A stretch of DNA of 64,000 nt from Patescibacteria group bacterium. GTDB taxonomy: Bacteria; Patescibacteriota; Dojkabacteria; GCA-002793355. A program made the translations under genes and the position numbers. A model generated the notes under the pieces. It was not told the origin of the DNA, ran no database searches, and saw only the letters and a program-made list of their open reading frames with translations. Location of the stretch: NCBI GenBank assembly GCA_016860985.1, contig BOKM01000001.1:2310-66309 (forward strand). Direction: 5' to 3'. Of the stretch, positions 11,931 to 57,874 are shown one piece after another; position 1 is the stretch's first letter, and each line of letters begins with the position of its first letter.

Positions 11931-11934
11931 ACTT

Positions 11935-14059: not shown

Positions 14060-14099
14060 CGCTCTTCTAGAAAATTCTAGATTGTGCTACCGTAGAATA

Positions 14100-15407: not shown

Positions 15408-15521
15408 CTTTATGGTAACCTATGAATTTATTACACGTAGTTAACTTTTTACCAACTCGGTGAATTTCGGTCAAGGATTGAATTTATTGCAGATACCCAG
15501 GAGAAAAGATATAGTGTTTTA

Positions 15522-16365: not shown

Positions 16366-16432
16366 GGGGAATTATAACACTTTAGGTATTTCAGATATTC
16401 AGAACGATAATAATGATCTATAATTTAATACA

Positions 16433-18404: not shown

Positions 18405-18490
18405 TGGTAAGGATAGAACTAATTAATCGGGAGGTCAAGAGAAAGAATATCTGGAACCTAAAAATTGATACTGAAGACCCTTTGGTTATA

Positions 18491-18577
18491 GATAGGACTG
18501 ACGGGACTTGAAGCAGCCATTACAATAATGCGGAACTGGAAGGTCTGGTACATGGAATGAGACAGTATAAAAAGGAT
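18491..18577 (+). repeat. copy A (short form) of a conserved noncoding element family (GATAGGACTGACGGGACTTGAAG...AATGCGG...GGTCTGG...GAGACAGTATAAAAAGGA)
   Basis: About 80% identity to 24714-24826 and to the split copy at 47538-47600 plus 47830-47866. Same orientation in all three. Confidence 0.6.
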
Positions 18578-18602
18578 GTCTCAGCGTGTCATTATCCAGA
18601 TA

Positions 18603-23845: not shown

Positions 23846-24605
23846 CAATTTGTTGGAACATATCATCAGTATCATCTTTCCATTGCCCCGACCACGATAG
23901 TTTTAGCTCAATTAGCGAAGGACTAGCATTTTTTGCGTAAACACAAATCTTTAATTTGTAATCACCAGGAGTTAAACAATCCTTTTGGGCAAAAACTATA
24001 TCCTTACTTTCCAAAAAAAACATAGTCTTCTCTTTTTCTTCCGAAGAGTATCCCCTGTACTTTGAGGATGGCTTACACGTAGCAGGATTTGCAATCGAAC
24101 CAATATCAACAAAAAACATATTTCCCGACTGAATTGTCAGTACTCGTATCTCTTGATTATACTTTGCCGACCAGTTAAGAATTATTGGGGTAAAATTCTT
24201 TTCTTCAATAAAATCTCCTGAGCTATCTTTTTTAGAAATGCTTTCTAGGTATGTACTGCAATCTTCAGCTGCAAGCTTTCCTTCATTTTTTACCGCGATT
24301 CTGAAGAAATATACATCGATTCCTAAATCTGTTGTAGTTTTATGACAGAAGGGACTACCAAGTTTGAATAGGATTTTATTTTTTGGGGAGCGAAAAGTGT
24401 ATTTGAAATGTTCCGACATAAGTGGGCCGATAAATGCGACGAGTAGCGCAATAAGGCCAATTGCTATCTGTATGTAATCCGAAACAGATAACATTGATAC
24501 TACTGCAGGAACTAATGTTGGTGTCATCATTAATTGTACATTCTTTCCGACATACATACCAGAATTGTACTGGCATGTACTTTGCGTTCCAAAGCTTAGA
24601 ACCAA
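23832..24605 (-). CDS. hypothetical membrane-anchored protein
   Basis: 257-aa ORF with an N-terminal TM segment (IAIGLIALLVAFIGPLM). Confidence 0.4.
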   Translation of the reverse strand: MVLSFGTQSTCQYNSGMYVGKNVQLMMTPTLVPAVVSMLSVSDYIQIAIGLIALLVAFIGPLMSEHFKYTFRSPKNKILFKLGSPFCHKTTTDLGIDVYFFRIAVKNEGKLAAEDCSTYLESISKKDSSGDFIEEKNFTPIILNWSAKYNQEIRVLTIQSGNMFFVDIGSIANPATCKPSSKYRGYSSEEKEKTMFFLESKDIVFAQKDCLTPGDYKLKICVYAKNASPSLIELKLSWSGQWKDDTDDMFQQIVIKR

Positions 24606-24611
24606 GGAGTA

Positions 24612-24826
24612 TTTATTTTTGCAATTTTTAGATGATTTTGCGTATTACAGGACTACGTTGACACTTTTCCAATTTGGGGTATCCGTAAGTAATGGTAAGT
24701 TGGACATTTCCAGATAGGACTGACGGGACTTGAAGCAACCGTTGCAAAAATGCGGAGCATGTGGGTCTGGCACCGTACAATGGCTGGTTGGTAGAAAAAA
24801 TGAGACAAAAGAGACAGTATAAAAAG
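24612..24826 (+). repeat. copy B (long form, about 215 nt) of the conserved noncoding element, ending in an RBS-like AAAGGA just before the ATG of the next operon
   Basis: 24612-24720 matches 47432-47545 (AAGGAGTATT..TTTTAG....CGTATTACAGGACTACGTT.ACAC.TTTCC...GATAGGACTGACGGGACTTGAAG). The core also matches 18491-18577. Confidence 0.6.
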
Positions 24827-24830
24827 GAAA

Positions 24831-25937
24831 ATGATTTGTCTCAATCTAGAAAAATTGCTTATCACTTATCCACACAATCTGATGAATTTCTGTTATAATC
24901 CACAGCAATATGTAACAATACTATTGCACATGATTCAACCTACAAAGTCTTGGAATAATCCAAATCAACATTATAAGGATGCGCTGACTACTCCTTGGTA
25001 TAAAGTCTTGACTGGCCTACAAAGCGATTTCGTTAATGCGACAGTTTCATTTTATAAAGAAATTGGTTATGATTTTACCCTTCTTCCGATAACTACAGGT
25101 GCTATTTCTAGCCCTATGGGGTTAGGAAGTGACTCGTCACCGGTTCAAGTGAATATTGGAGGTGTCGAGACATATCTTGCCGATTCAATGCAATTCATGC
25201 TTGAGTATGCATGCAGAGTTAGAAAAAATGGATGCTATTATTTGGCACCATCGTTTAGAGGAGAACTTGCAGATGCAAGACACTTATGCCAATTTTATCA
25301 TTCAGAAGCAGAAATAGAAGGTACGATTACGGATGTAATGTCACTTGTAGAGAGATACGTAAAGTACCTTGCACAGTGGTATAAAGATCATAGCAAAAAT
25401 GAACTATTAACTGTAACTGATAATATTTCACATCTGGATACACTTATCAATATTGAAAAGATCCCAACAGTCACTTTCGCTGAAGCAGTCGATATCCTTG
25501 AAAACAATAGCGAATACATTCAAAATCATGGTATTTACCGAACAATTAACCATGCAGGCGAAAAGAAATTAATTGAGAAATATGGCGGATTTGTCTGGTT
25601 AACCCATTTTGATCATCTTGCAGTTCCATTCTATCAGAAGAATACTGATGACACATTTACGACTGCAATTAACGCAGATCTGCTTATGGGAATCGGAGAA
25701 ACAGTTGGCTCTGGTGAGCGACACTTCTCAAGAAGAGAAACAGAGAAAGCACTTGATTTTCATAAGGTGAGTAGAGATCATTACGAATGGTATTTAACAA
25801 TGAAGGAACTTGTACCAATGCAAACATCAGGCTTCGGACTTGGAGTTGAAAGATTCTTGTTATGGTTAACTAATCAAAATGATATTAGAGATATGCAATT
25901 AGTACCAAGATTTAATGGAGAAAAGGAGATACTATGA
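24831..25937 (+). CDS. class II aminoacyl-tRNA-synthetase-like catalytic core without an anticodon-binding domain (AsnRS/AsnA-like amino-acid ligase)
   Basis: Motif 2-like YYLAPSFRGELADARHLCQFYHSEAEIE and motif 3-like SGFGLGVERFLLWLT. No N-terminal OB fold, as in archaeal-type asparagine synthetase A paralogs. Confidence 0.55.
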   Translation: MICLNLEKLLITYPHNLMNFCYNPQQYVTILLHMIQPTKSWNNPNQHYKDALTTPWYKVLTGLQSDFVNATVSFYKEIGYDFTLLPITTGAISSPMGLGSDSSPVQVNIGGVETYLADSMQFMLEYACRVRKNGCYYLAPSFRGELADARHLCQFYHSEAEIEGTITDVMSLVERYVKYLAQWYKDHSKNELLTVTDNISHLDTLINIEKIPTVTFAEAVDILENNSEYIQNHGIYRTINHAGEKKLIEKYGGFVWLTHFDHLAVPFYQKNTDDTFTTAINADLLMGIGETVGSGERHFSRRETEKALDFHKVSRDHYEWYLTMKELVPMQTSGFGLGVERFLLWLTNQNDIRDMQLVPRFNGEKEIL

Positions 25938-35078: not shown

Positions 35079-38000
35079 ATGAGTGCTATCGAAAAATATA
35101 TTGAAGAAGTAATAAAGACTTATAAGACTGGGCATGCACGCGAGCATGCATATAGACCTGCGCTAGAGACTCTTATTGAAGAGATAAATCCCAATATAAA
35201 TGCAGTAAACGACCCTAAACAGCAAAAGGTGGGTGCCCCTGATTTCGTATTGCTTAAGGGGAAAACACCAATTGGTTACATTGAAGCAAAAGACATTGAT
35301 GTAAATCTGGAGAGCGAATTCAAAACAAAGAATCAATTTAATCGATATAAGTCTTCACTCAACAATATTTGTTTTACTAATTGTCTGGATTTTCATTTCT
35401 ATGTAAATGGAGAAGCAATCTCGAGAGTCAGTGTTGGAAAACTGGAAGCTGGAAAAATATCAATACTCACTGAAAACCTTCCTTTACTTGAAAGCTTGCT
35501 TGTCAATTTTACGACACTGAAGTCAATCTCAATTCGTAGTCCAAAAGAACTAGCATTCTTAATGGCTGAGAAGGCTAAAATGCTCAAAAATGTAGTCTAC
35601 TTATCGCTAAAAGAGGGATCTGAAGTGAAGGGACAGGTAGAACAACAATATGAAGTTTTTAAACAGATGTTAATCCACGACCTTTCATTGGAGCAATATG
35701 CTGATATATATGCCCAAACAGTCGCATATGGGATGTTTGCTGCGCGCTTCCATGATAAATCTCTTGATACATTTACAAGAGATGAGGCAAATAACTTATT
35801 GCCAAAATCAAATCCTTTTCTGAGAAATTTCTTTCAAACGATTGCTGGATACAATATCGATGAGCGTATTGTATGGATAGTTGATGATCTTGCAGAACTT
35901 TTCAATCACGTAAATGTCCGCGAATTGCTTGAAAATTTTGGAAAGGATACGAAAAGGAGCGATGTAATTGTCCATTTTTATGAAACTTTTCTTTCCGAAT
36001 ATGATGCAAAGATGCGCAAAGCCAGAGGTGTCTATTACACACCAGAGCCAGTCGTTGATTTCATTGTGAGAGCCGTTGATGATATTTTAAAAACTGAGTT
36101 TGGCATAACTGATGGCCTTGCTGATACAAGTAAAATTGACGTTGAAAAGGAAGTTCAGGGATTAAAGAAAAAGCAGAAGGTAAAGGAACATCGTGTCCAA
36201 GTACTTGACCCCGCAACTGGAACAGGTACATTTTTAGATCACGTTATCAAACATATCTACAACACAAAATTTAAAGGACAACAAGGTATTTGGCAAGGTT
36301 ATGTTGATGAGCACCTACTACCTAGGCTACATGGATTTGAAATTCTCATGGCAAGTTATTCAATGGCACATCTTAAACTTGATATTACTCTTGCAGAGAC
36401 TGGCTATGATTCATCTAAAGGGCAAGGGAAGCGTTTAGGTGTATACCTCACAAACTCACTCGAAGAGCCCGAAGCACATCAAAAAGACCTGTTTTCTCAA
36501 TGGCTAACGACTGAAAGTATGGAAGCAAACGAGGTGAAGAAGGAAAAGCCAATTATGGTGGTTATGGGAAATCCGCCTTATAGCGGTGAGAGTTCAAACA
36601 AAGGCAAATGGATTATGGATTTAATGGAAGACTACAAATTTGAACCAGGAGGCCAAGAAAAGTTAAACGAACGAAATCCCAAGTGGATCAATGATGATTA
36701 TGTGAAGTTTATTAGATTTGCGCAACATTATATCGAAAAAAATGGCGAGGGAATACTTGCATTTATTAATCCTCATGGCTTTTTAGATAATCCTACGTTC
36801 AGGGGAATGCGATGGAAGTTGTTATCTGTTTTCGACAAGATATATACTATTGATCTACACGGGAATACAAAAAAGAAGGAACTTACGCCCGATGGATCCA
36901 AGGACGAGAATGTGTTTGACATAATGCAAGGAGTAAGCATAAATCTTTTTGTAAAAAAGCGAGATTCAAGAAATAAGTTGGCAAATGTTTATTCTAAGGA
37001 TCTTTACGGTAAAAGAAATATAAAATATGATTTTCTGTCTACTAATAGAATTGGGGATATAAAATGGAACAAACTAGATCCCCATAATGACATGTATTTC
37101 TTTGTTCAGAAAGACTTTGAATTACTTAACGAATACGAACAAGGTATTAAGGTTAACGAGTTATTTCCAGTAAATAACGTTGGCATCGTTACTTCAAAAG
37201 ATGCGATTTTAGTTTCCGAAGATGAGGAGAAGTTACTCAAGAATGTACAAGAACATTATCAGATTAATACTGATAAAAACAAAGTTAAGAGAATTTCTTA
37301 TAGACCTTTTGATGATAGATTTGTCTATTATGATACAAAATTGATAGAGAGAGCAAGATACGAAGTAATGCAGCACTTAATAAAAGGTGCGAATTACGGA
37401 ATAATAATTCCAAGACAAGCAATTACAGACAACTATTCACACGTAAATATAACTCGGTATATGACTGACAATCGGTATCAATACAGCAATAAAGGAGTAA
37501 CAACAGAAGTTCCTCTCTATTTATACAAAGACTCCACACTACTTACAGCGACAAGAGAACCAAATCTTAGCAGAACGCTAATTACAGATATTGCCACAAA
37601 ACTAAAGCTCCAGTTTATGAACGACCATGAGCATGCAGATTCAGGAAAAGCAGGCACATTCAATCCATTAGATATTCTCGATTACATTTACGCAATCTTA
37701 CACTCACCATCATACCGAGAACGCTATAAAGAATTTCTTAAAATTGATTTTCCACGAATCCCGTTTACATCAGATCAAAAGTTATTCTGGTCTTTAGTAG
37801 AAAAAGGGAGAGAAATTCGACGATATCACTTAATGGAGCATACAAACAGCAGTTCATTAATAACACAGTACCCTGTTTCTGGTGAAAATGAAGTTATCAA
37901 CCCTAGATACTCCGATAATAAAGTTTGGATAAATGATACGCAGTATTTTGATGATGTACCTCAAATTGCATGGGGATTTTACATTGGTGGATACCAACCA

Positions 38001-38147
38001 GCACAGAAGTGGCTAAAGGATAGAAAAGGAACGAAGCTAACTTTTGACGATGTGTTACATTATCAACAGATTATTGTTGCCTTGACTAATACAGACAGAA
38101 TTATGCACGAGATTGATAGTTTGGCGATGACTTGGCCTCTAAAATAG
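35079..38147 (+). CDS. Type IIG restriction-modification enzyme (MmeI-like: N-terminal PD-(D/E)XK endonuclease + gamma-class N6-adenine methyltransferase + target-recognition domain)
   Basis: N-terminal GAPDFVLLKGKTPIGYIEAKD (PD...EAK), central LDPATGTGTF (motif I) and VVMGNPPYSGE (NPPY), about 400 aa of C-terminal target-recognition domain. 1022 aa. Confidence 0.75.
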   Translation: MSAIEKYIEEVIKTYKTGHAREHAYRPALETLIEEINPNINAVNDPKQQKVGAPDFVLLKGKTPIGYIEAKDIDVNLESEFKTKNQFNRYKSSLNNICFTNCLDFHFYVNGEAISRVSVGKLEAGKISILTENLPLLESLLVNFTTLKSISIRSPKELAFLMAEKAKMLKNVVYLSLKEGSEVKGQVEQQYEVFKQMLIHDLSLEQYADIYAQTVAYGMFAARFHDKSLDTFTRDEANNLLPKSNPFLRNFFQTIAGYNIDERIVWIVDDLAELFNHVNVRELLENFGKDTKRSDVIVHFYETFLSEYDAKMRKARGVYYTPEPVVDFIVRAVDDILKTEFGITDGLADTSKIDVEKEVQGLKKKQKVKEHRVQVLDPATGTGTFLDHVIKHIYNTKFKGQQGIWQGYVDEHLLPRLHGFEILMASYSMAHLKLDITLAETGYDSSKGQGKRLGVYLTNSLEEPEAHQKDLFSQWLTTESMEANEVKKEKPIMVVMGNPPYSGESSNKGKWIMDLMEDYKFEPGGQEKLNERNPKWINDDYVKFIRFAQHYIEKNGEGILAFINPHGFLDNPTFRGMRWKLLSVFDKIYTIDLHGNTKKKELTPDGSKDENVFDIMQGVSINLFVKKRDSRNKLANVYSKDLYGKRNIKYDFLSTNRIGDIKWNKLDPHNDMYFFVQKDFELLNEYEQGIKVNELFPVNNVGIVTSKDAILVSEDEEKLLKNVQEHYQINTDKNKVKRISYRPFDDRFVYYDTKLIERARYEVMQHLIKGANYGIIIPRQAITDNYSHVNITRYMTDNRYQYSNKGVTTEVPLYLYKDSTLLTATREPNLSRTLITDIATKLKLQFMNDHEHADSGKAGTFNPLDILDYIYAILHSPSYRERYKEFLKIDFPRIPFTSDQKLFWSLVEKGREIRRYHLMEHTNSSSLITQYPVSGENEVINPRYSDNKVWINDTQYFDDVPQIAWGFYIGGYQPAQKWLKDRKGTKLTFDDVLHYQQIIVALTNTDRIMHEIDSLAMTWPLK

Positions 38148-40108: not shown

Positions 40109-40146
40109 ACCCCAGACTTCATCCTTCTTTGCGTTACTTGTTGTGC

Positions 40147-40203
40147 ATGGAACAACCAACCAATACACCACTCACCTACTGCCTCTATACCAGAAAGTCA
40201 TCT
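40147..40203 (+). pseudogene. 5' remnant of a serine recombinase gene (first about 19 codons: MEQPTNTPLTYCLYTRKSS) with the conserved recombinase leader
   Basis: 40113-40146 aligns to the 34 nt upstream of both intact recombinase genes (…CAGACTTC.TCCTTCTTTGCG.TACT.GT.GT..ATGGAA). The coding similarity ends after the KSS codons, then a stop follows at 40222-40224. Confidence 0.55.
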
Positions 40204-40300: not shown

Positions 40301-43300
40301 ATGAATACAGCCACTAAAGAGTTCATATATTGCAAACGCTGTAACGTCATCCTCCGATTGTCTAGTAATGACATGAAGGAAGAGAGTGTATCTTGTCCAA
40401 AATGTAACACCATAAATGAATTAGTTACTGCTGTATCCCCAGCGTACTCTCCTAGAAAAGTAAATTGTACGAACTGCAATTCAGTATTAATGCTAAATAA
40501 TAAGGAGCGATTACGTGGTGCTTTAATACATTGCCCAGAGTGCAAGATGGACTTCAATAACACCCTCGAGCGACTTAACGAGATTCCGGAAGAATTAACA
40601 GTTGAATCGACAGCGGATAATAATAACGAACAGTCAAATATTTCTAAGTTTTCTACTCCACCTATATACCACAACGATAGTGCTCTTTCTGAGAATACTG
40701 ATAACAACGAAGCTATTCAAAAGTCAGAAGCAAAGGTTTCGCAAATTAAGTTCGACAAAACATTTATTAAACGTTTACTTGACAAACTAAAAGTTGGGAA
40801 TGCGAGATCAATTCATCTCAATGCAGTTCCTGGTAGATCTGCCACGAGACTTGACCTGTATCAACTTTCTGATATTGATAAGGATTTGCCAAAAAACTTC
40901 CTCGACAAGTTGATGACTAACGATTCTTTTTCGTTCACGATTTCGTATGATAAAGTAAATCTCGGAGAAATTGACGATGAAGCGAAAAGAAAACTTGCTT
41001 TGATTACGAAACGATTGAACACAATAGTCATTGAAAATACAGACAGCCTTTTAGAGTATGGATTAGAGAATTTTGGTTTTGGATATCCATTACTAATCAA
41101 GAGAGATCACAATGATCCAAGCAAGGTCGTAAAAGCACCATTATTCATCTGGAATTTGAACTTAGAGAGGTCCACTCAAAATAAAAACACATGGGTTATA
41201 AAAAGAGGCGAAGATTACCCAATAAAAATCAATGAGCTTTTGATCTCTCACATAACAAAGGATGAATCAATTCAGATAGAAAAGATACCTAAAGATATTC
41301 TCGAAGATGGCATCCTGGATGAAAGTGAACTCCTTAAATTAACAAAGGTTATTTTATCCCAATTAAATACCACAAGCATCCCCTCTGAAATTAAGTTAGA
41401 AAAGTGCCCGGACGCAAAGGAGATTGATGATATCGCAAATTCGAAGCCATGGATTCAATGGAGTGGAATATTCGGCATCTATAGGTCTCAGAATGAAACA
41501 ATAATTCACAGTACTGAGGAGTTGCTTTCACGTTTAGATGAGTTTTCAAGTGAAAGTTTGACTTTAGAACCATTTCAAACATCCACAGTAACTTCAGTAG
41601 AAACAGACCCAAGCAAAGAGGAGATCGTAAACACACTAACAAAGGATGAAATAAAGTTGATCCAAGGACCACCAGGTACAGGAAAAAGCCAAAGTATTAC
41701 AGCTATTGTTTCAAATGTTTTATCCAACAATGGGAAATGTTTAATCGTATGCGAGAAGAAGACAGCATTAGATGTTATATACACGATCTTAACTAAAATA
41801 GGGTTAGGGCAATTATCCATACTTATTGACGATGTAAACAAGGATAGAAAGCTAGTAATTGAAAAAGCCAGAACAATACGAGAGAGTCCAGGAGCTCCAT
41901 ATTTCTCCCAGCGAAGTTATAATGACCTTTATGCAAAGTTTTCAGCATTGAAGGAGAAAATAAATTCAAAGTATTCTGAGTCACTAAGAAGCGTGCTCGG
42001 TGATTTAAACTGGAAACAATTAATTGGTTTGTATCTACGATATTCGAAAGAAGTTTGTTTCAACGATATTCTGGGAAGACTAAACTACAATGATTGTAAT
42101 TTCAACTACGATGAGTACTCTCTCTTGGTATCATTCATTGAGGAGGCAAGTCAACTTTATAGTGAATTGGGTAATGATTCTGAATCGGCATTTGAGATTG
42201 TAAACAAGTCGATTTTTTCAACGCGTTATAAATGGACTGAACACGAAAAATTAAAGAGCGTAACATCCGAGTATCTTGATATCATTTCTGCGTTAGAGAA
42301 ATTTACTGCAGGAAAAAAACAAGGCGAGTTTGAGAAATTTGGTGTATCAACTTTTGATGTGGATGCGATTAATAACTCACTGAGCTTAATCAATTTGCTT
42401 ATCGAATCACTCGAAAAAGCCGTCAAATCATTTAGAAAAGGAACAGGGCTCATCGGAAAGGAGTTTTGGTGCCAAAATGCTTTCACAAAATTCATAATGA
42501 GAGCAAAAGCTCTATACACAAATAAGTATAAGACTTCCCTTTTGTTGGAAAAAACCATAATAAAGCACTTTAAAGAAGCGAAGAGCTTAATCTATGGGCT
42601 TCGAAAATATAATATTTCAATTAGTGAATTGGTACAAAGTAGTAAATACGAAAGTACTGAAGAAGAGCTCTCATATATTGGGAATATTATTATTGAGGCA
42701 AACACTATCAGACTTCAGATTGAAGATCTCGCTAAATACCGAGCATTTCTTGAAGACATTGAAACGCGACTATTGAAACTTGAGTCCACAAACGTCGTGA
42801 ACTATAAGAATACTAGGCTCGCCGACATCAAAAGCCTCAGTTCACTAAACAAATTTAAGGATCAACTCAAGCTTTTGTTTGAGCGATTATCATTACATCT
42901 TGACTCATTTGAAAGTTATCATAACTGGAAATACTTTTTAGGAAATATAGATAATTATAAGACTAAACTTGTAACAGCATTTCTTGATATTCCTCCTGAA
43001 AATTGGAGAAATTTATTCATCGCATGGTATTACCGAGGAGCTTTGCATAATTTTGAGAGTAAATCGAGTATCGGATTTAATAATTCCGACACATCTCTGA
43101 ATCAATTAAGTGATTTTTATTCTGAATTGAAAAAACAACAAATTGATCAAATAAAGTTCACATGGAGTACAAATCAATTCAAGCTTTTTGAAAAAACCAC
43201 TTACAATTTCAACCTGCTTTACAATTTAAGAAAGAACCATGTTGGTCCCAAAAACTCTCTTAGGAACCTTATTGAAAAGGACTTTAATCTATTTACGACA

Positions 43301-44719
43301 ATGTTTCCAATAATCTTAACAAACCCTGCGGCGGCTAACGCCATCCTCCCTCTAAAACAAGGCCTTTTTACCGTAGTAATCTTTGATGAAGCGAGTCAGC
43401 TAAAAGTATCTGATACTTTTACGACATTCATTAGGGGCCAGTACAAAATCATTGCAGGAGACGAACACCAAATGCCACCTTCCTCTTATTTTCAAAGTAA
43501 TGCAGATTTACTGGACATTGACGAAGATGATACAAATGATGTCTTCACAGAGACTGACGAGCAAATTGCTTTGTCAGAAAGTGAATCACTGCTTCAATAT
43601 GCGACAGACTTACCACACGTTAATAAATCGTACTTAGATTTTCACTACAGATCCAATCATCAAGCCTTAATTAACTTCTCAAACAACGCTTTCTATGGTG
43701 GCAATTTAGTTACATTCCCTCATTTTGAAGTTTACAGACCAATTGAATTTAGAGCGGTAAATGGGCGCTATGAAACAAGAACAAACCCATCCGAGGTAGC
43801 AGAAATCTTGAAGATTCTTCAGATAGAGATTCACACAAATCAAAATGGGAAATACCCTTCAGTTGGCATAGCAACATTTAATATTAACCAAAGAAACTTA
43901 ATAATTGAAACACTAAACAGGGTTGCCGAAGAAGATCCCACCTTTGGAAGTAAGTTACGTGAACTGAAAGAGAACGGGTTGTTTGTCAAAAATCTAGAAA
44001 ATATTCAAGGTGACGAAAGAGATATTATTATTATTTCAACAACATATGGTATTCAGCCAGACGGAACCTTCTCCCAGAATTTTGCTAGATTAAATAGAAT
44101 CGAGGGGTATAAACTTCTAAATGTATTGATTACCCGAGCAAAACATAAACTATATGTATGCACCTCAATTCCAAAAAACAAGTACATTTCCTACCCTGAA
44201 TTAATTAAAAGTGAGGGCAACAATAAAAGAGGAATTCTTTACGCTTATTTAGCGTATTCAGAAGCAATATCCGCAGGTGATAACGATACTGCAGAAGGAA
44301 TTTTGGAATTACTAAAAACCCAAAGTTATGAAAAACCTAGAATAATGTCTGCGAACGACGGACTATCAGAATCACCCTTTGAAGAAGAAGTATACGACCT
44401 GTTATCAAAACATTTCCCTGCGGAAAAGATCATTCAGCAGCATAAAGTCGGTGGATTCCGCCTTGATTTTATAATTAAGTCCAAAATTAAGGATATCGTA
44501 ATCGAATGTGATGGTAAGGCATACCATTCCACAGAAGAAGCATATGCTTATGATATGTTTAGACAAAAGGAGTTGGAAAAAATGGGATTCATTATATATA
44601 GAATTTGGTCAACCAACTGGTTTAGAGACAAGGAATTAGAAATGAGAAAACTTTTGGGTTTTGTATCAATTACTAACAATGAAAGTCCTGAAGTATTACA
44701 AAAATCATTGCCACTCTAA
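40301..44719 (+). CDS. 1472-aa SF1B (Upf1/DNA2-like) helicase with N-terminal tandem zinc ribbons and a C-terminal DUF559/Vsr-like PD-(D/E)XK endonuclease domain
   Basis: Four CxxC pairs in the first 90 aa. Walker A GPPGTGKSQS, motif II VVIFDEASQL, motif VI VLITRAKHKLYV. C-terminal GFRLDFII...IVIECDGKAYH...FRQKELEKMGFIIYRIW fits DUF559. Confidence 0.7.
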   Translation: MNTATKEFIYCKRCNVILRLSSNDMKEESVSCPKCNTINELVTAVSPAYSPRKVNCTNCNSVLMLNNKERLRGALIHCPECKMDFNNTLERLNEIPEELTVESTADNNNEQSNISKFSTPPIYHNDSALSENTDNNEAIQKSEAKVSQIKFDKTFIKRLLDKLKVGNARSIHLNAVPGRSATRLDLYQLSDIDKDLPKNFLDKLMTNDSFSFTISYDKVNLGEIDDEAKRKLALITKRLNTIVIENTDSLLEYGLENFGFGYPLLIKRDHNDPSKVVKAPLFIWNLNLERSTQNKNTWVIKRGEDYPIKINELLISHITKDESIQIEKIPKDILEDGILDESELLKLTKVILSQLNTTSIPSEIKLEKCPDAKEIDDIANSKPWIQWSGIFGIYRSQNETIIHSTEELLSRLDEFSSESLTLEPFQTSTVTSVETDPSKEEIVNTLTKDEIKLIQGPPGTGKSQSITAIVSNVLSNNGKCLIVCEKKTALDVIYTILTKIGLGQLSILIDDVNKDRKLVIEKARTIRESPGAPYFSQRSYNDLYAKFSALKEKINSKYSESLRSVLGDLNWKQLIGLYLRYSKEVCFNDILGRLNYNDCNFNYDEYSLLVSFIEEASQLYSELGNDSESAFEIVNKSIFSTRYKWTEHEKLKSVTSEYLDIISALEKFTAGKKQGEFEKFGVSTFDVDAINNSLSLINLLIESLEKAVKSFRKGTGLIGKEFWCQNAFTKFIMRAKALYTNKYKTSLLLEKTIIKHFKEAKSLIYGLRKYNISISELVQSSKYESTEEELSYIGNIIIEANTIRLQIEDLAKYRAFLEDIETRLLKLESTNVVNYKNTRLADIKSLSSLNKFKDQLKLLFERLSLHLDSFESYHNWKYFLGNIDNYKTKLVTAFLDIPPENWRNLFIAWYYRGALHNFESKSSIGFNNSDTSLNQLSDFYSELKKQQIDQIKFTWSTNQFKLFEKTTYNFNLLYNLRKNHVGPKNSLRNLIEKDFNLFTTMFPIILTNPAAANAILPLKQGLFTVVIFDEASQLKVSDTFTTFIRGQYKIIAGDEHQMPPSSYFQSNADLLDIDEDDTNDVFTETDEQIALSESESLLQYATDLPHVNKSYLDFHYRSNHQALINFSNNAFYGGNLVTFPHFEVYRPIEFRAVNGRYETRTNPSEVAEILKILQIEIHTNQNGKYPSVGIATFNINQRNLIIETLNRVAEEDPTFGSKLRELKENGLFVKNLENIQGDERDIIIISTTYGIQPDGTFSQNFARLNRIEGYKLLNVLITRAKHKLYVCTSIPKNKYISYPELIKSEGNNKRGILYAYLAYSEAISAGDNDTAEGILELLKTQSYEKPRIMSANDGLSESPFEEEVYDLLSKHFPAEKIIQQHKVGGFRLDFIIKSKIKDIVIECDGKAYHSTEEAYAYDMFRQKELEKMGFIIYRIWSTNWFRDKELEMRKLLGFVSITNNESPEVLQKSLPL

Positions 44720-44849: not shown

Positions 44850-46190
44850 ATGGAAAACACAATAAAAGTACCTGAATTACGCTACTGTCTCTATGCTCGG
44901 AAATCCTCAGAGTCTGACGAGAAGCAAGCAATGAGTATTGATAGCCAGCTTCACGAAATGAGTGATTTGGCAAAGCGAGATAATATCAACATCGTCGACA
45001 TCATTACAGAAAGCCATTCTGCTAAAGAAACTGGGCAACGACCACAGTTTAACCTTATGGTTGAAGGAATTAGTAGCGGAAAGTATAACGGCATTATAAC
45101 GTGGGCTCCAGATAGAATTTCGAGAAATGCTGGTGACTTAGGTCGAATAGTCGACTTAATGGATCAAGGCAAACTCTCACTTATTAAGACGCATTCCCAA
45201 ACATTTACCAACAACCCAAACGAGAAGTTCCTCCTCATGATTCTCTGCTCCCAAGCAAAACTAGAAAACGACAATAGAGGAATTAATGTAAAGCGTGGTC
45301 TAAAGAGTAAATGTCAGACAGGAGTAAGGCCAACAATGCCACCTCTCGGATATATTAACATCATGCGAGCAAATAGAATCTCAACAGTAATCATAGACCC
45401 AGAAAAGGCTCCAATTATTAAACAGATGTTCACGTACGTTGCTGACAAAGGACTTTCAGGAAGAACCATCCGAAAATGGCTAAGAAAAATTGGATTCAAA
45501 TCAAGAACAGGAAAAGACCTCGTTTTAAGTCTAATCTACAAAATGCTCAAAAATCCCTTTTATTATGGATATTTTAAATACGGTGAGAAAATATACAAAG
45601 GTTCACATGAACCTCTCATATCCAAACAAGTATTTGATAAAGTACAAATACAGTTGCAAACAACACCACGACAGTGGAATAAACAGCTCTACCCTTTTAA
45701 GAAGATTTGCAAATGTGGAAGTTGTGGCAGTAGTATAACTGCAGAAACGAAGTTTCGAGTAGTTCAGAATGGAGACGTTCATCCTCATATCTATTATCAC
45801 TGCAATAGGATAAATGACTATGATTGTCATGAACCCTATATAACGGAAGCTGAACTCATACAGCAACTTGTTGCTCTTATGCCACAAATCAAACTCGACA
45901 AAGAATACATTTGGAACCTATTCCAAGACGAAATCAAACGACTGAATCATCTACAACAAATAATGAATCTGAAAAATAGTGTAGCTTTTGAGACAACTCC
46001 ACATAGGAACAAGTCCAAATCCATAAAGGCGATTAGTGGAAAGGAAACCGAAATGATCAGAGATTATTTCCTACACATTCTTCAGTATGGAACACCGGAA
46101 GAAAGGCAGAACATATTAAGGGGCGTTAAGACGATATTCAAATTGAGAGATCGAGAACTAATGATCAAAAAAACGTCATTGATTACCTAA
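44850..46190 (+). CDS. large serine recombinase, paralog of 22505-23845
   Basis: Same domain signature (YCLYARKSSESDEKQ, CKCGSCGSS zinc ribbon). Identity to copy 1 is mosaic at the DNA level: about 88% in the 5' third, about 99% in the middle. Confidence 0.85.
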   Translation: MENTIKVPELRYCLYARKSSESDEKQAMSIDSQLHEMSDLAKRDNINIVDIITESHSAKETGQRPQFNLMVEGISSGKYNGIITWAPDRISRNAGDLGRIVDLMDQGKLSLIKTHSQTFTNNPNEKFLLMILCSQAKLENDNRGINVKRGLKSKCQTGVRPTMPPLGYINIMRANRISTVIIDPEKAPIIKQMFTYVADKGLSGRTIRKWLRKIGFKSRTGKDLVLSLIYKMLKNPFYYGYFKYGEKIYKGSHEPLISKQVFDKVQIQLQTTPRQWNKQLYPFKKICKCGSCGSSITAETKFRVVQNGDVHPHIYYHCNRINDYDCHEPYITEAELIQQLVALMPQIKLDKEYIWNLFQDEIKRLNHLQQIMNLKNSVAFETTPHRNKSKSIKAISGKETEMIRDYFLHILQYGTPEERQNILRGVKTIFKLRDRELMIKKTSLIT

Positions 46191-46215: not shown

Positions 46216-46644
46216 TTACAACTTTTTATAGTAAGCTAGTCCCAAAAAAATGAACCCAGCGAAAGACATAAAAGCGAAACCGATGATCTGGGTTATAACT
46301 CCAATATAATCAAACGATGAATCTATTAATGATGACGAATCGGCAATCCTGTAAGTTGAAAGAGAGGAGGATTGTGTAGTTGGAGTGTAAGTGGAGCTTG
46401 TATCTTGCCGTTTCTTAGTTCCTTCTACACCAGTATATGGATTGGTGTTTCCTTCTACACTCCAATTATTATTTACAATTCCGTCTGGGTCACTTCGATA
46501 ATATCCCTCGACTCGTGTTCCATCTTTCTTTGTATAGCCATTAACCCATACATCTGCATAAGCTGGAGAACTAGTAATGGCCACTGTTGCGAAAGAAAAG
46601 ACGATGAGAATTAGCACCAAAAGAAATTTGAATGCAGAAAACAT
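46216..46644 (-). CDS. hypothetical secreted/membrane protein (signal peptide, Ser/Thr-rich, C-terminal TM)
   Basis: N-terminal FKFLLVLILIVFSFATVAITSSPAYA and C-terminal hydrophobic segment. Confidence 0.4.
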   Translation of the reverse strand: MFSAFKFLLVLILIVFSFATVAITSSPAYADVWVNGYTKKDGTRVEGYYRSDPDGIVNNNWSVEGNTNPYTGVEGTKKRQDTSSTYTPTTQSSSLSTYRIADSSSLIDSSFDYIGVITQIIGFAFMSFAGFIFLGLAYYKKL

Positions 46645-47375: not shown

Positions 47376-47404
47376 AATTTTTTTGAACTACTAATGTAGA
47401 CACA

Positions 47405-47458
47405 TTCGGTTCCGAAGCTTCGAACAAAGGAGTATTATATTTTCTGATTTTTAGTGGT
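47405..47458 (+). terminator. possible intrinsic terminator after the DUF805 gene (imperfect palindrome TTCGGTTCCGAAGCTTCGAAC followed by a T-rich tract), coinciding with the start of conserved-element copy C
   Basis: GTTCCGAAG/CTTCGAAC near-palindrome at 47409-47425, then TATATTTTCTGATTTTTAGTGGTTTTT. Confidence 0.3.
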
Positions 47459-47600
47459 TTTTACGTATTACAGGACTACGTTTACACATTTCCGAAAGTA
47501 CCTCTCAAAACAATCGGAGACTTGGTCACTAATTGATAGGACTGACGGGACTTGAAGGAATTCAATGCAAAATGCGGGACATGTGAGTCTGGAACATAAA
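47432..47600 (+). repeat. copy C (5' part) of the conserved noncoding element. Its 3' part (GAGACA...GACAGTATAAAAAAGAG) lies at 47830-47866 after an inserted micro-ORF.
   Basis: 47432-47545 aligns with 24612-24720. The core GATAGGACTGACGGGACTTGAAG is at 47538-47560. Confidence 0.55.
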
Positions 47601-47646
47601 AGCACTTAATATTGACTACGCTGGCATTTATATTGTACAAAAATAA

Positions 47647-47811
47647 ATGAAAGACAATTCTGTAAAAAAATTTTTAATACTAGTTGGTGTAGGCGCAGTG
47701 ATTGGATATGGAGTATTAGGTGACTTTGAAGGTGCATTCAGGGGAGGATGCGGTGGTGCTGTATTTGGCTTTTTCGCTGCATTAATTGATGACCAGTTAA
47801 AAAATTCTTAG
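47647..47811 (+). CDS. 54-aa glycine-zipper membrane micro-protein (not in the ORF track because it is under 60 aa)
   Basis: MKDNSVKKFLILVGVGAVIGYGVLGDFEGAFRGGCGGAVFGFFAALIDDQLKNS is one TM helix with GxxxG repeats, sitting between the two halves of element copy C. No clear Shine-Dalgarno sequence. Confidence 0.25.
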   Translation: MKDNSVKKFLILVGVGAVIGYGVLGDFEGAFRGGCGGAVFGFFAALIDDQLKNS

Positions 47812-47884
47812 GTCTGTTATTTTTTTATCGATATTAAACGAGACAAATGGGACAGTATAAAAAAGAGAAATATTGAATTGCTAA

Positions 47885-48607
47885 TCAGTTATTCTTCTCA
47901 CTTGCAATCTCATTTAATGCTTCTCTCGTAAAATCATTAATATTATTAAGAATACTTTTCCTGACCAGATAATCAGTTAGATCATTAGTATCAGATTGAA
48001 ATTGACTCAATTGATACTTCATCTCTGCAGTGATTACCATTTTTACATACTCAAAAGTCGAATCGTTATTGATTGGATTATGCTTTTCTTTATTAAAGTA
48101 GAAATCATTACCATCGTAAGACCAGCCAGACCTTGCTTTAATCGCGTTGACCAGAGAATTAATCAATTCTGAATTTTGATAACGTGAATAAGTGCGAGCA
48201 CTGCGTAACAACATTTGAATCGAGTACTTCACATCTTCAGTAATAACCCATTGTGTTAAAGTTTCTTGCTTTCTTAGATTTTCTATATTCTCATTCGACC
48301 ACTCGCAGTTTTGAAGAATTAAAGCAGTGACGTGAATAGGGTTTGATGTTCTCTTCACGGTCTCAAATATTCTTTTTGCATCAACATCAGTAAGTTGGTT
48401 AAAAGGCTCACGATATCTTAACCAATTAACTATATAATTTAATGCTTCCTCGTGTGATTTACCTGTCTGAGTAAGAGTCTTGTAAGACGCCATAGACTGG
48501 GTATAGACTGACCATTTTAACGAAAAAGTGATTCGAGGAATAAGGTATATGGCCGTGATGAGTACTAATAGGAATATAAACCACCCCCACATGCAGTATT
48601 CAAGCAA
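47885..48607 (-). CDS. hypothetical protein with an N-terminal TM anchor
   Basis: 240-aa ORF. N-terminal WGWFIFLLVLITAIYLIP. Confidence 0.4.
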   Translation of the reverse strand: MLEYCMWGWFIFLLVLITAIYLIPRITFSLKWSVYTQSMASYKTLTQTGKSHEEALNYIVNWLRYREPFNQLTDVDAKRIFETVKRTSNPIHVTALILQNCEWSNENIENLRKQETLTQWVITEDVKYSIQMLLRSARTYSRYQNSELINSLVNAIKARSGWSYDGNDFYFNKEKHNPINNDSTFEYVKMVITAEMKYQLSQFQSDTNDLTDYLVRKSILNNINDFTREALNEIASEKNN

Positions 48608-53280: not shown

Positions 53281-53967
53281 TTGGGGAGTTATTTGAGTGT
53301 ACAATATCCAATGCCAGATATTAATATTCAGCTTGAGAATTTGGAAAAGCTTAAACGACTACTTCTTGACAAGTATCTTGAAGCAGACAATAAGTGGAGA
53401 GATTTTTTAGATTTAATCGGTGGTGACGTCCTTTCTGATAAAAAGCTATTAATTCATAAACAACTAATCGAAGAACTCTCTGGAAGAAAATATATCTACG
53501 ACACGTTTAATAGAAATTCTTTTGCTATTGAAAACTTGGTGCATGCATTGAAGGATCTTTATGAAAATGATGAGAACTTAATAAATCAAAGCGGACAAGA
53601 GAGAGCGATTTCCTCAGCTCTCGCGCATCGTATGGGAATGTATTTTGAGAATACATACGATATCGATTGCGAATACAATAAGCATTTGAACGAACAAAAA
53701 TTAATTACTCAAGATGCGAAACGATCTGAACGTCCAGATATAATTGTTCACATGAGAGGAACAGATGCAAAAAACTTACTCGCCCTCGAAATAAAACAAA
53801 ATGAAATAAGTAAAGCTGATAAAGATAAACTTTCTGCGTTATCACTCGCTAACGGCCAGTATATATACAAATTCGCGATTGGCATTGAGATTAATGATAT
53901 TTTTGCACATATTTATATATATATTGATGGTGAATGCATAAATATTAGCAAGATTATTACTAGGTAG
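53281..53967 (+). CDS. hypothetical PD-(D/E)XK-like nuclease-fold protein
   Basis: DIDCEYN...RPDIIVH...LLALEIK follows the D/E...PD...(D/E)xK order. Confidence 0.4.
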   Translation: MGSYLSVQYPMPDINIQLENLEKLKRLLLDKYLEADNKWRDFLDLIGGDVLSDKKLLIHKQLIEELSGRKYIYDTFNRNSFAIENLVHALKDLYENDENLINQSGQERAISSALAHRMGMYFENTYDIDCEYNKHLNEQKLITQDAKRSERPDIIVHMRGTDAKNLLALEIKQNEISKADKDKLSALSLANGQYIYKFAIGIEINDIFAHIYIYIDGECINISKIITR

Positions 53968-55960
53968 TTTTGGATTCTCCGTTGAATACCGCGTTCAAAA
54001 ATGACTCAATTTCATCAGTCTGGAAGATTGCTGAAATATTTCTCGTCTTATTCTTGTTAACTATCTCACTAATTTCATATATTGAGTCATTGCTCAATTT
54101 TCTACTTTTTGGAGAAACCAATTTACTGTCGAGAGAAAGATCTTCGACTTCTCCATCAAGGATGCATATTCCATGCTTTCTAAGTGTTTCAAAGAATGCG
54201 ACTGCATTTTCTTTTACTTTAGGTAACTCGTCTATATTTGAAGCAAGATAGAACTCTCTTTCGTAACTGACCTTAAGCTGTGATCTTGTTCTTTGTATTT
54301 TTTTGAATATTTCTTCACCTTCAAGACCAAAAGTACATGATTGAGTAAAGAACTTGAGTCCAAGACTTTGTACCGACTCACTAGGTTTTGAACTATATTC
54401 AGCACATTTCTCGGTATCTTTATCTCTTAAATAATAATCAAAATCAGCTACCAAATAACATTCTAGGCCAAGCATTCTAACTAACTCAGCGTACTTGTGG
54501 ATATTATTCTTACCACCACAATTTAGAATTGTTGTATTATTCGCATTTAGTTGCATTGGGAACTTTTCGTCAGCAATCCATTTAATAATATGGCTATCCA
54601 GTCCCTCACAGAGAATAACTTTATCTGCGAAAAATATCTCATTATGATTATCGTCAAGAAGTAGAGACTGAAATTCCCTAATTTCAATAGGTGTTATAAC
54701 GGTTTTTTTGTTGATTCTTTTGACAAGAATAATATTCAATTCAGTTCCTGTAGTTTTTATGAACTCCGGACTATGTGTAGTCATAATTACCTGATTCTTT
54801 CCATTCTCAAGAAACTCATCGAACCTGTCGCTAATAACCCTTCGAGCATGTGGATGTAAATATAATTCTGGTTCTTCTACACATAACAAGGCACTTGCTT
54901 TTGAATTATATTGTCTTACATAATAACTAAACAGGCCAATTATAGTTGCACTTTGTATTCCAGCCCCCTTATCTGACAAGGGTGATTTAACACCGTCATC
55001 AATATAAATTTTAGAATCCTTATAGGTTTCTGTACTCTTATCTTCATTTAATTGAAACGATATGTCTGCACCAGGGAATGCAACATTTATAGTACTAGTC
55101 TGAATTTTTTCTCTTGCTACAGTAAATATTTTATCTGTTACTGACTTGACCTGACTATATGCAGTCTCTAACTCCTCGAAGTATGGGTGATCTTGAGTAA
55201 TATGTTTAAGTAGCTTGCCATACCAAGTATAACTTGTCGCACGCAATTGGATAACTGGATCCCTGAAACTACTAATTACAGCGCTCTGCAATAATTCTCC
55301 TCTTATAGGTGAGTTGAGAGCCAATATCCAACCTTTTTCAGGGCTTTCTCTATAAAGAAACCGCATATATTTTTCAACTCTGTGATTAATAACCTTTGCC
55401 CGAAAAACATACATAAACTCAAACTTGTTGTTCAGTTCATCTTCAAATTTGACAACATTACTGAGTTTCCCATCTACCCATCTCTTTCCTACGATATATC
55501 CACCTGCGGTTGGGTCGTCGACATCCTTGTCAAGAGTAAAAATCGAATCGAATTCGTCTGTAGTATAAGTATCAAAATGAAATCTTTTTTCAATATCCGC
55601 TTTTGGCCCTAGTTTAAAATCTGGTTTTGCAGAAAGAACTTTGTAAAATCCAGTAGTTTCGTTTATTGCAGCAAAATTAAGTTCTTCCTCGTTTTCTCTT
55701 TTTAGTATACAGGCTATTGTAAGTTCCGTTGCTGACTCTACAATGGCTTCATTCCTAAACGAGTGGAAATCTAACTCAGTTACATTGTCTGACTTGGCAT
55801 ATGTTGGGGACGATTCACCTAATAAAATATCAATCGCTTTTAGAATATTGCTTTTACCAGCATTGTTTCTTCCTACAATGACATTCTTGCCTTTACCAAA
55901 TGTTAGGTCTGCTTCATTGATAGATCTGAAGTTTTTAATAACTAGCCTTGATAAATACAT
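53960..55960 (-). CDS. OLD-family ATP-dependent endonuclease-like protein (ABC/AAA-type ATPase N-domain + Toprim-like C-domain)
   Basis: N-terminal LSRLVIKNFRSI...VIVGRNNAGKSNILKAI (Walker A). C-terminal region with DKVILCEGLDS (Toprim Glu) and LVADFDYYLRDKD (DxD). Confidence 0.6.
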   Translation of the reverse strand: MYLSRLVIKNFRSINEADLTFGKGKNVIVGRNNAGKSNILKAIDILLGESSPTYAKSDNVTELDFHSFRNEAIVESATELTIACILKRENEEELNFAAINETTGFYKVLSAKPDFKLGPKADIEKRFHFDTYTTDEFDSIFTLDKDVDDPTAGGYIVGKRWVDGKLSNVVKFEDELNNKFEFMYVFRAKVINHRVEKYMRFLYRESPEKGWILALNSPIRGELLQSAVISSFRDPVIQLRATSYTWYGKLLKHITQDHPYFEELETAYSQVKSVTDKIFTVAREKIQTSTINVAFPGADISFQLNEDKSTETYKDSKIYIDDGVKSPLSDKGAGIQSATIIGLFSYYVRQYNSKASALLCVEEPELYLHPHARRVISDRFDEFLENGKNQVIMTTHSPEFIKTTGTELNIILVKRINKKTVITPIEIREFQSLLLDDNHNEIFFADKVILCEGLDSHIIKWIADEKFPMQLNANNTTILNCGGKNNIHKYAELVRMLGLECYLVADFDYYLRDKDTEKCAEYSSKPSESVQSLGLKFFTQSCTFGLEGEEIFKKIQRTRSQLKVSYEREFYLASNIDELPKVKENAVAFFETLRKHGICILDGEVEDLSLDSKLVSPKSRKLSNDSIYEISEIVNKNKTRNISAIFQTDEIESFLNAVFNGESKTT

Positions 55961-56132: not shown

Positions 56133-57479
56133 ATGGGAAACTCAATCCCCACATCTAACAAACTGGAAACGGTCTACGTTTCAATAGATCAGCTGAATCC
56201 AGCTGGCTACAATCCACGCAAGTGGGATAAAAAGGCTCTTGATGATCTCAGGAAGAGCATTAAGAAGTTTGGTCTAGTCGACCCTGCTATCGTAAATGGA
56301 GCCTCTAACAGAATGAACGTTGTTATTGGTGGTCATATGCGAATTGCAGCAGCCAAAGAGCTCGGTATTACTGAAATACCAGTAATTTACCTCAATATTC
56401 CCGATGTTGAAAAAGAAAAGGAACTGAATATTCGACTGAATAAGAATCATGGAGAATTCGACTTTAAGCTTCTTGCAAACTTTGCTGAGGAATTTCTAAC
56501 AGATATAGGCTTTAATTCTGAAGAACTAGACTCGATCTTTGACTGGGATGACGACACTCCCGAGGAATTTGATCTCAAGAAAGAATTAGAGAAACTTGAT
56601 ATACAAAACATCGAAACAAAGAAGGGAGACGTTTGGCAGTTAGGAGAGAATCGACTCATGTGTGGCGACTCTACCATTCAAGCTAACATGCTTGAACTTC
56701 TCTCTGGAGATAAGGCAGATATGGTAATGACTGACCCGCCTTACCGCTTGGACTACCTCCATGGTAAGAAAAAGAACGGTAAACCAACAGAAGGGTTCGG
56801 ATACAAACGAGATAGAAAATATCTTGAGACCGATACTCTACCTGATGATTTTACGGAACTCTGGATGAAAAACATCAAAGTGATTTCAAAAGCAGACTTC
56901 CATATTATTGTCTATGAAGCGTGGAAAAATTTGCGTGAAATTTGGGGCGAGCTCGAGAAGCACTGGAAGGTAAAGAATATGATTGTATGGCATCTGCCGA
57001 ACAGGAATCAAAGTTTTGCTGCGAAGTATAAATTTTTCAGCAAATATGACATTGCTATGGTCGGTTCTTCACACAGTGAAGAAAATCTAAACACTGAATC
57101 CGAGGAGCAATTACTCCAGGAAGAATACGAAACTGCACTGTACGCTATTTCAGGAAAACCGCATTGGGAAGGCTACCAAAAAGGTAAAAAGATACAGCCA
57201 ACAGACTTCATTGAGTTCAACGCTTCAGACGAGAAGCATTCAGGACAAGGAATAATCTTTGGTACAAAACCAATCGAGATACTTATTCCCTACATCAAAG
57301 TACTCACGAAACGAGGAGATTTGGTCGTAGAACCGTTCGGAGGAAGTGGATCGACTCTTATTGCCTGTCAGAAAATGAGGCGGAAATGTTACATCATGGA
57401 AAAGTCTCCTGTGTATGCCGAGGTTATCAAGAAGCGATGGGAAAAATTGACTGGATTAATAGGAGTAAAGATAACATGA
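56133..57479 (+). CDS. ParB-like nuclease domain fused to an N6/N4 DNA methyltransferase (second copy)
   Basis: Same architecture as 33328-34656 (LVDPAIVNG...GGHMRIAAAK, MTDPPY, EPFGGSGST). Confidence 0.85.
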   Translation: MGNSIPTSNKLETVYVSIDQLNPAGYNPRKWDKKALDDLRKSIKKFGLVDPAIVNGASNRMNVVIGGHMRIAAAKELGITEIPVIYLNIPDVEKEKELNIRLNKNHGEFDFKLLANFAEEFLTDIGFNSEELDSIFDWDDDTPEEFDLKKELEKLDIQNIETKKGDVWQLGENRLMCGDSTIQANMLELLSGDKADMVMTDPPYRLDYLHGKKKNGKPTEGFGYKRDRKYLETDTLPDDFTELWMKNIKVISKADFHIIVYEAWKNLREIWGELEKHWKVKNMIVWHLPNRNQSFAAKYKFFSKYDIAMVGSSHSEENLNTESEEQLLQEEYETALYAISGKPHWEGYQKGKKIQPTDFIEFNASDEKHSGQGIIFGTKPIEILIPYIKVLTKRGDLVVEPFGGSGSTLIACQKMRRKCYIMEKSPVYAEVIKKRWEKLTGLIGVKIT

Positions 57480-57874
57480 AAAAGGCCAACAAACCCGAGC
57501 TGATCGAACAGCTCAAAAAAACTCCGATAATACAAGTTGCTTGTGAAAAGGTAGGTGTAGCGAGAGCCACTTTCTACCGATGGCGAAAAGAAGATACTGA
57601 CTTTGCCGAAAAAGTTGAAGAAGCTGTAAACGCTGGATCACAACTCATTAACGATATGGCAGAAAGTGTTCTAATCACAGCAATAAAGAATGGAAACATT
57701 ACCGCCATAATCTTTTGGCTAAAGAATCATCACAAGATGTATTCCCCAAAAATGGAAGTAACAACAAAGAATGGCGATATTCCTTTAACTGACGAGCAAA
57801 AGGAACTCATACGAAAGTCACTCGACTTAGCCTTTGCAGATCAGTTAACAGATATCAAGCATGGAGAACAGTGA
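57476..57874 (+). CDS. terminase small subunit-like HTH protein (second copy)
   Basis: ATGA overlap with the upstream gene. GVARATFYRWRKED and AIIFWLKNHH, paralogous to 34653-35036. Confidence 0.5.
   Translation: MKKANKPELIEQLKKTPIIQVACEKVGVARATFYRWRKEDTDFAEKVEEAVNAGSQLINDMAESVLITAIKNGNITAIIFWLKNHHKMYSPKMEVTTKNGDIPLTDEQKELIRKSLDLAFADQLTDIKHGEQ

Follow-up and report, generated by a model that had tools for sequence, protein, structure and literature searches.

A conserved element occurs three times, always on the + strand, in the window, by which we mean the whole 64-kb stretch of DNA analysed here. A repeat search and an nhmmer profile located copy B (profile match 24580-24774, E 2e-61), copy C (47403-47596, E 4e-56) and a partial copy A that retains just the last third of the element (18486-18552, E 3e-13). 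Immediately to the right of each copy lies a second conserved stretch, the 3' box, whose sequence GACAGTATAAAAAG occurs exactly three times in the window (at 18561, 24813 and 47851). The number of occurrences expected was 0.07, and none of 100 shuffled sequences gave three.

The original prediction was that core and box are 45 nt apart in copy B and 240 nt apart in copy C, where a 230-nt insert separates them. Comparison with copies A and B bore out both the wider gap and the extra DNA of copy C, and the figures were roughly right: between the last bases of the core (GTCTGGnAC) and the first of the box (GAGACA) we measured 7 nt in A, 28 nt rather than 45 nt in B, and ~244 nt in C, the excess over the other copies being ~215 nt rather than 230 nt. 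In copy C the 5' core occupies 47402-47595 and the 3' box 47836-47874, and the extra DNA is the site of an ORF of 54 amino acids (47647-47811), referred to below as the micro-ORF. The same spacer lengths were found in relatives, 28 nt at one site (L009c) of the chromosome L009 and ~244 nt in L026, a single short-read contig of 12 kb. Terminal inverted repeats around the insert in copy C were short, AT-rich and no better than chance. The features on which the analysis turns are as follows.

18490..18592, + strand: copy A; last ~40 nt of the element (18490-18530), junction segment, 7-nt spacer, 3' box, and a candidate minus-strand promoter (18592-18564)
24579..24844, + strand: copy B, the uninterrupted reference form; modules 1-3 (24579-24752), junction segment (24753-24773), 28-nt spacer, 3' box, and a candidate minus-strand promoter (24844-24816)
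44850..46190, + strand: large serine recombinase of the putative island that ends in copy C (Pfam Resolvase, Recombinase and Zn_ribbon_recom)
47402..47574, + strand: modules 1-3 of copy C, a conserved non-coding segment and putative island right terminus, found by nhmmer and ending in ...GCAAAATG
47575..47595, + strand: junction segment CGGGACATGTGAGTCTGGAAC, putatively the first bases of the right-hand DNA; aligns with CGGGGATTGTGATTCTGGAAT of L026
47606..47634, + strand: promoter-like site TTAATA-17-TATATT (promoter scan, 9/12 matches; weak -35)
47647..47811 including the stop codon, + strand: micro-ORF, predicted to encode a 54-aa, two-helix, glycine-zipper membrane protein (L026 homolog, codon score, AlphaFold2)
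47836..47874, no strand assigned: 3' box GAGACAAATGGGACAGTATAAAAAAG..., 82% identical to 24798-24836 in copy B
47885..48592, - strand: convergent gene for a 235-aa protein with an N-terminal TM helix and an all-alpha body; same arrangement in L026

Equivalents of the junction segment of copy C are present in A, B and L009c, and in copy C this segment sits where the 3' end of a tRNA stands in other genomes. The 3' box was also found in L009c and L026, and the right flank of copy A, which carries a PIG-L gene, is syntenic with L009c.

Conservation and expression signals of the micro-ORF

The translation of 47647-47811 is exactly that quoted in the original prediction, and the sequence exists as a protein in an NCBI record. 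Both a word search of 5.8 billion proteins and an exhaustive phmmer search of 1.84 billion representatives returned the query itself only, and there was no match in viral contigs, phage records or PDB sequences. The sole homolog was reached by synteny, via the neighbouring 235-aa gene. L026 has a called 54-aa homolog (MKDNSVKKFVILVIIGAAIGLSILGNFEGVFRGACGGAVAGFFAALIDEQFKNS) that aligns without indels and that occupies the same convergent position beside the homolog of the 235-aa gene. The two ORFs are identical at 41/54 amino acids (76%) and at 108/165 nucleotides (65%), and their differences at codon positions 1/2/3 number 11/7/39 (chi-square p 1e-7), with pN 0.148 and pS 0.976. Because synonymous sites are saturated and the protein is kept, we conclude that purifying selection has acted on this frame. 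Loss of the frame in homologous loci, which the original prediction had named as a refuting outcome, was not seen: in L026, frame and length have been kept together with 41 of the 54 residues.

Codon usage was scored with a table trained on 27 window genes, most of them with Pfam domain support. The micro-ORF scored 0.279 bits per codon, the top value among small ORFs outside the training genes; windows of 54 codons from real genes scored 0.22 +/- 0.09, and 132 spurious ORFs taken inside known genes had a mean of -0.02 and a maximum of 0.185. That the micro-ORF is a chance ORF within a non-coding spacer is hardly credible on these figures, even allowing that 54 codons is not a rare length in DNA of 36% GC, that the window has many spurious ORFs of 40-90 aa, and that no homologs came from the protein databases. 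Its length and frame have been kept despite saturated synonymous sites, and its codon score is above that of every other small ORF outside the training genes; the chance reading is refuted by the conservation in L026, provided that L026 is no assembly artefact. The comparison of the two alleles shows that the 54-codon ORF has evolved as a functional gene under purifying selection.

The -10-like hexamer of the micro-ORF ends 12 nt before the ATG both in the window (TATATT) and in L026 (TATAAT), and is followed in both by GTACAAA. Promoter-like hits in this AT-rich DNA are no commoner than in shuffled sequences. Among 32 window genes, a Shine-Dalgarno motif was found at only three, and a TATAAT-like hexamer that ends 4-14 nt upstream of the start codon was found at 13, compared with 7.7% of random ATGs. 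The scarcity of Shine-Dalgarno motifs and the frequency of TATAAT-like boxes near starts suggest that leaderless mRNAs may be the norm in this organism. The micro-ORF would probably be transcribed from its own -10 into an mRNA that has a very short leader or none; neither copy C nor L026 yielded an intrinsic terminator. Other examples of starts with a TATAAT-like box are those at 29830-30276 (- strand), 48701 (+), 51603 (-), 55960 (-) and 10206 (+).

The 5' core and the boundary at copy C

An exact scan for a 19-nt motif of the element through genome, metagenome and viral collections yielded two true homologs, L008, which is a Saccharibacteria contig, and L009, which is a Dojkabacteria chromosome; the rest were chance hits. 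A scan of viral contigs with a second motif gave no hit. In L008 the element runs directly into the 3' end of a tRNA-Asp on the opposite strand. We also fetched contigs encoding close homologs of the window serine recombinase, and in L017-L024 the element lies just past the recombinase gene and one small opposite-strand gene. The distance from the recombinase to the element downstream is 0.7-1.2 kb, both in the window (copies B and C) and in L017-L024.

In all copies the similarity stops at the same point, ...AAAATG/CGG (the slash marks the break). What stands beyond this break differs: a whole tRNA in some cases (Asp in L008 and L009b, Ser in L017b), a 3' fragment of a tRNA in others (L009a, L017a and L023a) and, in the window and L009c, the non-tRNA segment CGGrGCATGTGGGTCTGGCACC followed by the 3' box. 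In L008, L009 and L017 the adjoining tRNA sequence reads as its reverse complement. In L027 and L029, which are more distant members of this island family, a tRNA-Ser likewise faces the recombinase end. We considered whether junction segment and 3' box together might be a decayed tRNA and rejected this, there being no significant similarity to tRNA-Asp (p 0.4-0.99). From these arrangements we infer a mobile defence island whose non-coding right terminus is formed by the 5' core, and the crossover and att sites would be placed where the similarity ends. No serine integrase is known to require ~190 nt of conserved flanking DNA, which counts against this reading as regards modules 1-2.

Other identities for the element were tried and set aside. 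As a structured regulatory RNA it has no stable fold and no Rfam match: Rfam gave nothing for the element, either with the whole window at gathering thresholds or with copy B and L008 at E 10, and folding of copy B and L009a on both strands gave z-scores of +0.6 to +1.4, no better than shuffled sequences. As a coding sequence it offers short recurring frames such as IGLTGLEATVAKMR, but with stops just upstream and with frames that shift between copies, and by our own count the differences between B and L009c fall 4/3/2 by codon position. A divergent gene lies upstream of the element and is homologous between the window and L017 (64%). Because the gene there is not homologous in L023, L008 and L009, the element is not simply its leader.

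Within module 3, an invariant core, TGACGGGACTTGAA..GCAACC, recurs at 24718-24741, 47540-47557 and 18496-18519 and in L008 and L009. It resembles the reverse complement of the T-arm and acceptor region of tRNA-Asp (shuffle p ~0.005-0.01), and could be either a relic of the integration target or a mimic of it.

L026 comes from a very close relative, in which the proteins of the core genes at window positions 8758-16397 are 96-100% identical. Its order is shared core genes, two unrelated genes, then CGGGGATTGTGATTCTGGAAT, a -10 box, the micro-ORF, the 3' box and the 235-aa gene; an nhmmer search of L026 found no element. Since the micro-ORF and the box occur there without the core, core and box appear to be separate entities, and the micro-ORF and box would both belong to the right-hand DNA. 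Because this right-hand DNA stands in L026 without the element, we place the island boundary at copy C at ~47574/47575. The proposal that the ORF splits one repeated regulatory element did not survive this comparison: the 5' core is best read as the right terminus of serine-recombinase islands, and the box lies beyond the island boundary, beside the micro-ORF in the core-less L026. It appears instead that an island terminus landed ~70 nt upstream of the ORF, and that no single functional element was interrupted.

The ~215-nt unit of promoter plus ORF is absent from the left ends at A, B and L009c, so that it represents either a gain here or a loss elsewhere. The gain of such a cassette would predate the divergence of the window and L026 alleles, whose DNA identity is 65%. 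Hendrix and co-workers are said to have described prophage "morons" as self-contained promoter-plus-ORF units between conserved phage genes. The unit at copy C is similar in being an extra ~215 nt with its own -10 and one small ORF, lying between two segments that adjoin each other in A, B and L009c; it also lies near the att end of mobile DNA and has a small membrane protein as its predicted product. Unlike a moron, it has no terminator that we could find, and the element that hosts it is a recombinase and defence island rather than a complete prophage.

Putatively stacked recombinase islands and their cargo

The window recombinase has >8000 homologs at E below 1e-20, mostly from Patescibacteria. 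The gene set of the islands consists of a ParB_N-methylase gene, an HTH/terS-like gene, a TerL-like gene and the large serine recombinase gene, and the cargo is restriction-modification and other defence genes. The same block recurs in many Patescibacteria contigs (window 33328-35036 and 56133-59312; L023, L027, L031 and L032), usually with such cargo and with no capsid genes.

We read the window as at least three units placed head to tail. Unit 1 (A to B) contains PIG-L, two methylases with DUF6996/6997 between them, and a recombinase (22505-23845). Between B and C, unit 2 contains an asnA-like gene and others, the ParB-methylase, a Type ISP enzyme, a fragment of a recombinase gene (40123-40202), the gene for a helicase/nuclease of 1472 aa, and its own recombinase (44850-46190). 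Unit 3, which starts from C, contains the micro-ORF, the 235-aa gene, DUF6994, an OLD-family nuclease, the ParB-methylase, terS- and TerL-like genes, and a Type ISP enzyme. In such a stack, copies B and C would be joints between one island and the next. At each of them the right end of one unit would be fused to the left end of the next, and the product would resemble the attP of the circular form. All of the DNA to the right of ~47575, i.e., the junction segment, the micro-ORF, the 3' box, the 235-aa gene and DUF6994, would then belong to the next unit.

On the minus strand, AGTATA in the box of copy C (47854-47859) reads as a -10 hexamer, TATACT. The boxes of A and B supply the -10 of 10/12 sigma-70-like minus-strand promoters, ATGACA-17-TATACT and TTGAGA-17-TATACT (18564-18592 and 24816-24844, respectively), and by our reading the same arrangement is present in L009c (~6700-6740). 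At C and L026, the TATACT lies on the strand opposite to the micro-ORF, ~43 nt past its stop codon; the promoter scan called no promoter at the box in either place, the -35 being poor. The box promoters point out of the left end of the unit, across the joint, into the neighbouring element, and it is a possibility that a promoter so placed reaches a gene only in circular or tandem forms.

Islands that occupy tRNA genes and are stacked in tandem (the Islander/TIGER islands, PMC4383910) resemble those described here in several respects. In both, the islands end against tRNA 3' ends, older joints are marked by 3' fragments of tRNAs (here L009a, L017a and L023a), several islands are stacked at one hot spot, and the cargo comprises restriction-modification and defence genes. 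The islands described here differ from them in carrying a large serine recombinase rather than a tyrosine integrase, in having a terminal non-coding element of ~190 nt that is kept across phylum-level lineages and, in the window, in having the tRNA position filled by a non-tRNA segment and the 3' box.

Several further observations concern individual parts of these units. The fragment at 40123-40202, ~80 nt long and directly before the helicase/nuclease gene (40301-44719), comes from the 5' end of another, third serine recombinase gene; it looks like a remnant left when an island end was replaced or truncated. In both units, exactly 8770 nt separate the element from the ParB-methylase gene that follows it (24579 versus 33349, and 47402 versus 56172), and three separate repeat pairs stand at an offset of 22823 despite unrelated intervening DNA, possibly by chance. 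At 20164-20925 on the - strand, between Dam-type and N4/N6 DNA methylases (19256-20167 and 20925-21725), lies the gene for a DUF6996/DUF6997 protein, which is probably the nuclease of a restriction-modification system. An ATPase-nuclease resembling OLD and Gabija GajA is encoded at 53960-55960 on the - strand, as defence cargo. Type ISP restriction-modification enzymes are encoded at 35079-38147 and 59377-63999 on the + strand, the first of them without the N-terminal nuclease and helicase part.

The predicted membrane protein and its possible roles

AlphaFold2 modelled the micro-ORF peptide as two helices, residues 3-24 and 27-52, with a pLDDT of 85 for the best model and of 63-67 for the other four, and its hydropathy profile has two peaks. 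The peptide had been described as a single TM helix with GxxxG repeats. The model gives a two-helix hairpin in place of the single helix; the repeats are indeed present, as small-xxx-small motifs including G33xxxG37xxxG41xxxA45, and are kept in the L026 homolog. Also conserved between the two homologs are the loop, (D)FEGxFRG, the N-terminus, MKDNSVKK, and the C-terminus, D(D/E)Q(L/F)KNS. The product is predicted to be a small integral-membrane helical hairpin, with helix 1 at about residues 9-25 and the zipper on helix 2.

Family searches gave no assignment. The peptide had no family match in Pfam, NCBIfam, PHROG or PADLOC, including toxin, holin, defence and glycine-zipper families; its lone Pfam hit, to EpuA, was sub-threshold (19.4 bits versus a cut-off of 27) and covered one helix (residues 10-29). 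A Foldseek search with the model gave no significant match (E at least 0.14). The top matches, all non-significant, were glycine-rich hairpins, i.e., a chain of the Legionella Dot/Icm outer-membrane cap, microcin E492, and small subunits of complex I and photosystem I. With glycine-zipper hairpins in general (the Pfam families, microcin E492, and the photosystem I and complex I subunits), the peptide shares the GxxxGxxxGxxxA motif and a predicted helix-turn-helix shape. Against the Pfam glycine-zipper families themselves (Gly-zipper_Omp, Gly-zipper_YMGG and Rick_17kDa_Anti) it scored below threshold, although the motif is present, and it differs from cationic bacteriocins in having a net charge of about 0 and no leader peptide. 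The peptide founds a two-member family of small proteins that has no family assignment.

The 235-aa proteins P0122 and P0123 are 68-69% identical, and P0123, encoded on L026, was the single homolog found; the protein belongs to no Pfam, NCBIfam or PADLOC family, and its AlphaFold2 model (pLDDT 60) was of too low quality to be used in a fold search. Left of the micro-ORF in the window, at 46216-46644 on the - strand, lies a gene for a 142-aa protein with hydrophobic N- and C-terminal segments (phrog_29674, E 2e-15), which is presumably exported or membrane-bound. Its homolog in L026 (2781-3191) lies on the opposite side of the pair formed by the micro-ORF and the 235-aa gene, showing that the neighbourhood has been rearranged.

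The most likely role of the peptide, to judge from its conservation and linkage, is that of an island-borne membrane accessory protein, perhaps acting with the convergent 235-aa protein (e.g., in exclusion or envelope-linked defence). This role is favoured, with modest confidence, because the termini and the loop are tightly conserved and because the linkage to the membrane-anchored 235-aa protein has been kept. An addiction toxin appears less likely than a membrane accessory protein.

A narrower proposal, to which we would give a fairly small chance, has the peptide serve the membrane-anchored 235-aa protein as a regulator or small subunit, in a non-toxic membrane module of two genes. The pair has been kept convergent, ~75 nt apart, in both genomes while other neighbours were rearranged; both products are predicted membrane proteins, and the best Foldseek matches, non-significant as they are, include two-helix subunits of large membrane complexes. 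Telling against it are a linkage seen in two genomes only, a structure model of the 235-aa protein too poor for the interface to be tested, and the convergent orientation itself, because of which the two genes would not be co-transcribed.

We consider it improbable that the peptide is the toxin of a type I toxin-antitoxin-like addiction module at the island joint, in which a depolarising peptide would be held in check by an antisense RNA that starts from the 3' box and overlaps the 3' end of the mRNA, the two together stabilising the island end. In some respects the case is like that of type I toxins such as Hok, Fst, TisB, TxpA and BsrG: the peptide is small (<60 aa), hydrophobic and conserved, with two predicted hydrophobic helices, it is located in mobile DNA, and past its stop codon there is a possible opposite-strand promoter, with a TATACT that is conserved at C and L026 and a box that gives 10/12 promoters at A and B. 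At C and L026, however, the scan finds no promoter and the -35 is a poor one, and A, B and L009c have the box as well but no ORF for it to repress; the latter argues that the primary role of the box is something else. In type I systems, translation is usually controlled via a structured 5' UTR, whereas the mRNA of the micro-ORF appears leaderless. The known toxins also have one helix rather than two, and no toxin model in Pfam, NCBIfam or PADLOC matched the peptide. Its charged termini and loop are as conserved as its helices, which suggests specific contacts with a partner. No type I system is known from this ultra-small, host-dependent lineage.

A holin or pinholin of a decayed prophage is very improbable: the two short hydrophobic helices with glycine-zipper motifs, and the terminase-like genes of the islands, would fit, but no lysozyme, amidase or other endolysin domain was found in the neighbours (Pfam, NCBIfam and PHROGs), the peptide has no PHROG or Pfam holin match, its C-terminal tail (DDQLKNS) is short (7 residues) and acidic with a net charge of -1 rather than long and basic, and the gene lies at the att-proximal end with no lysis cassette and no capsid or tail genes.

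Returning to the membrane accessory protein, we regard the account as a whole, i.e., that the micro-ORF is a real gene, that copies B and C are island joints, and that the product has an accessory role at the membrane, as reasonably probable. It adds a small, predicted membrane protein, with two known family members, to a Patescibacteria genome, and it replaces the picture of a split regulatory element with one in which the joints of stacked, recombinase-borne defence islands mimic a single repeated element. The apparently leaderless starts bear on gene calling in this lineage, and the island family may inform how tiny genomes gain restriction-modification and other defence genes.
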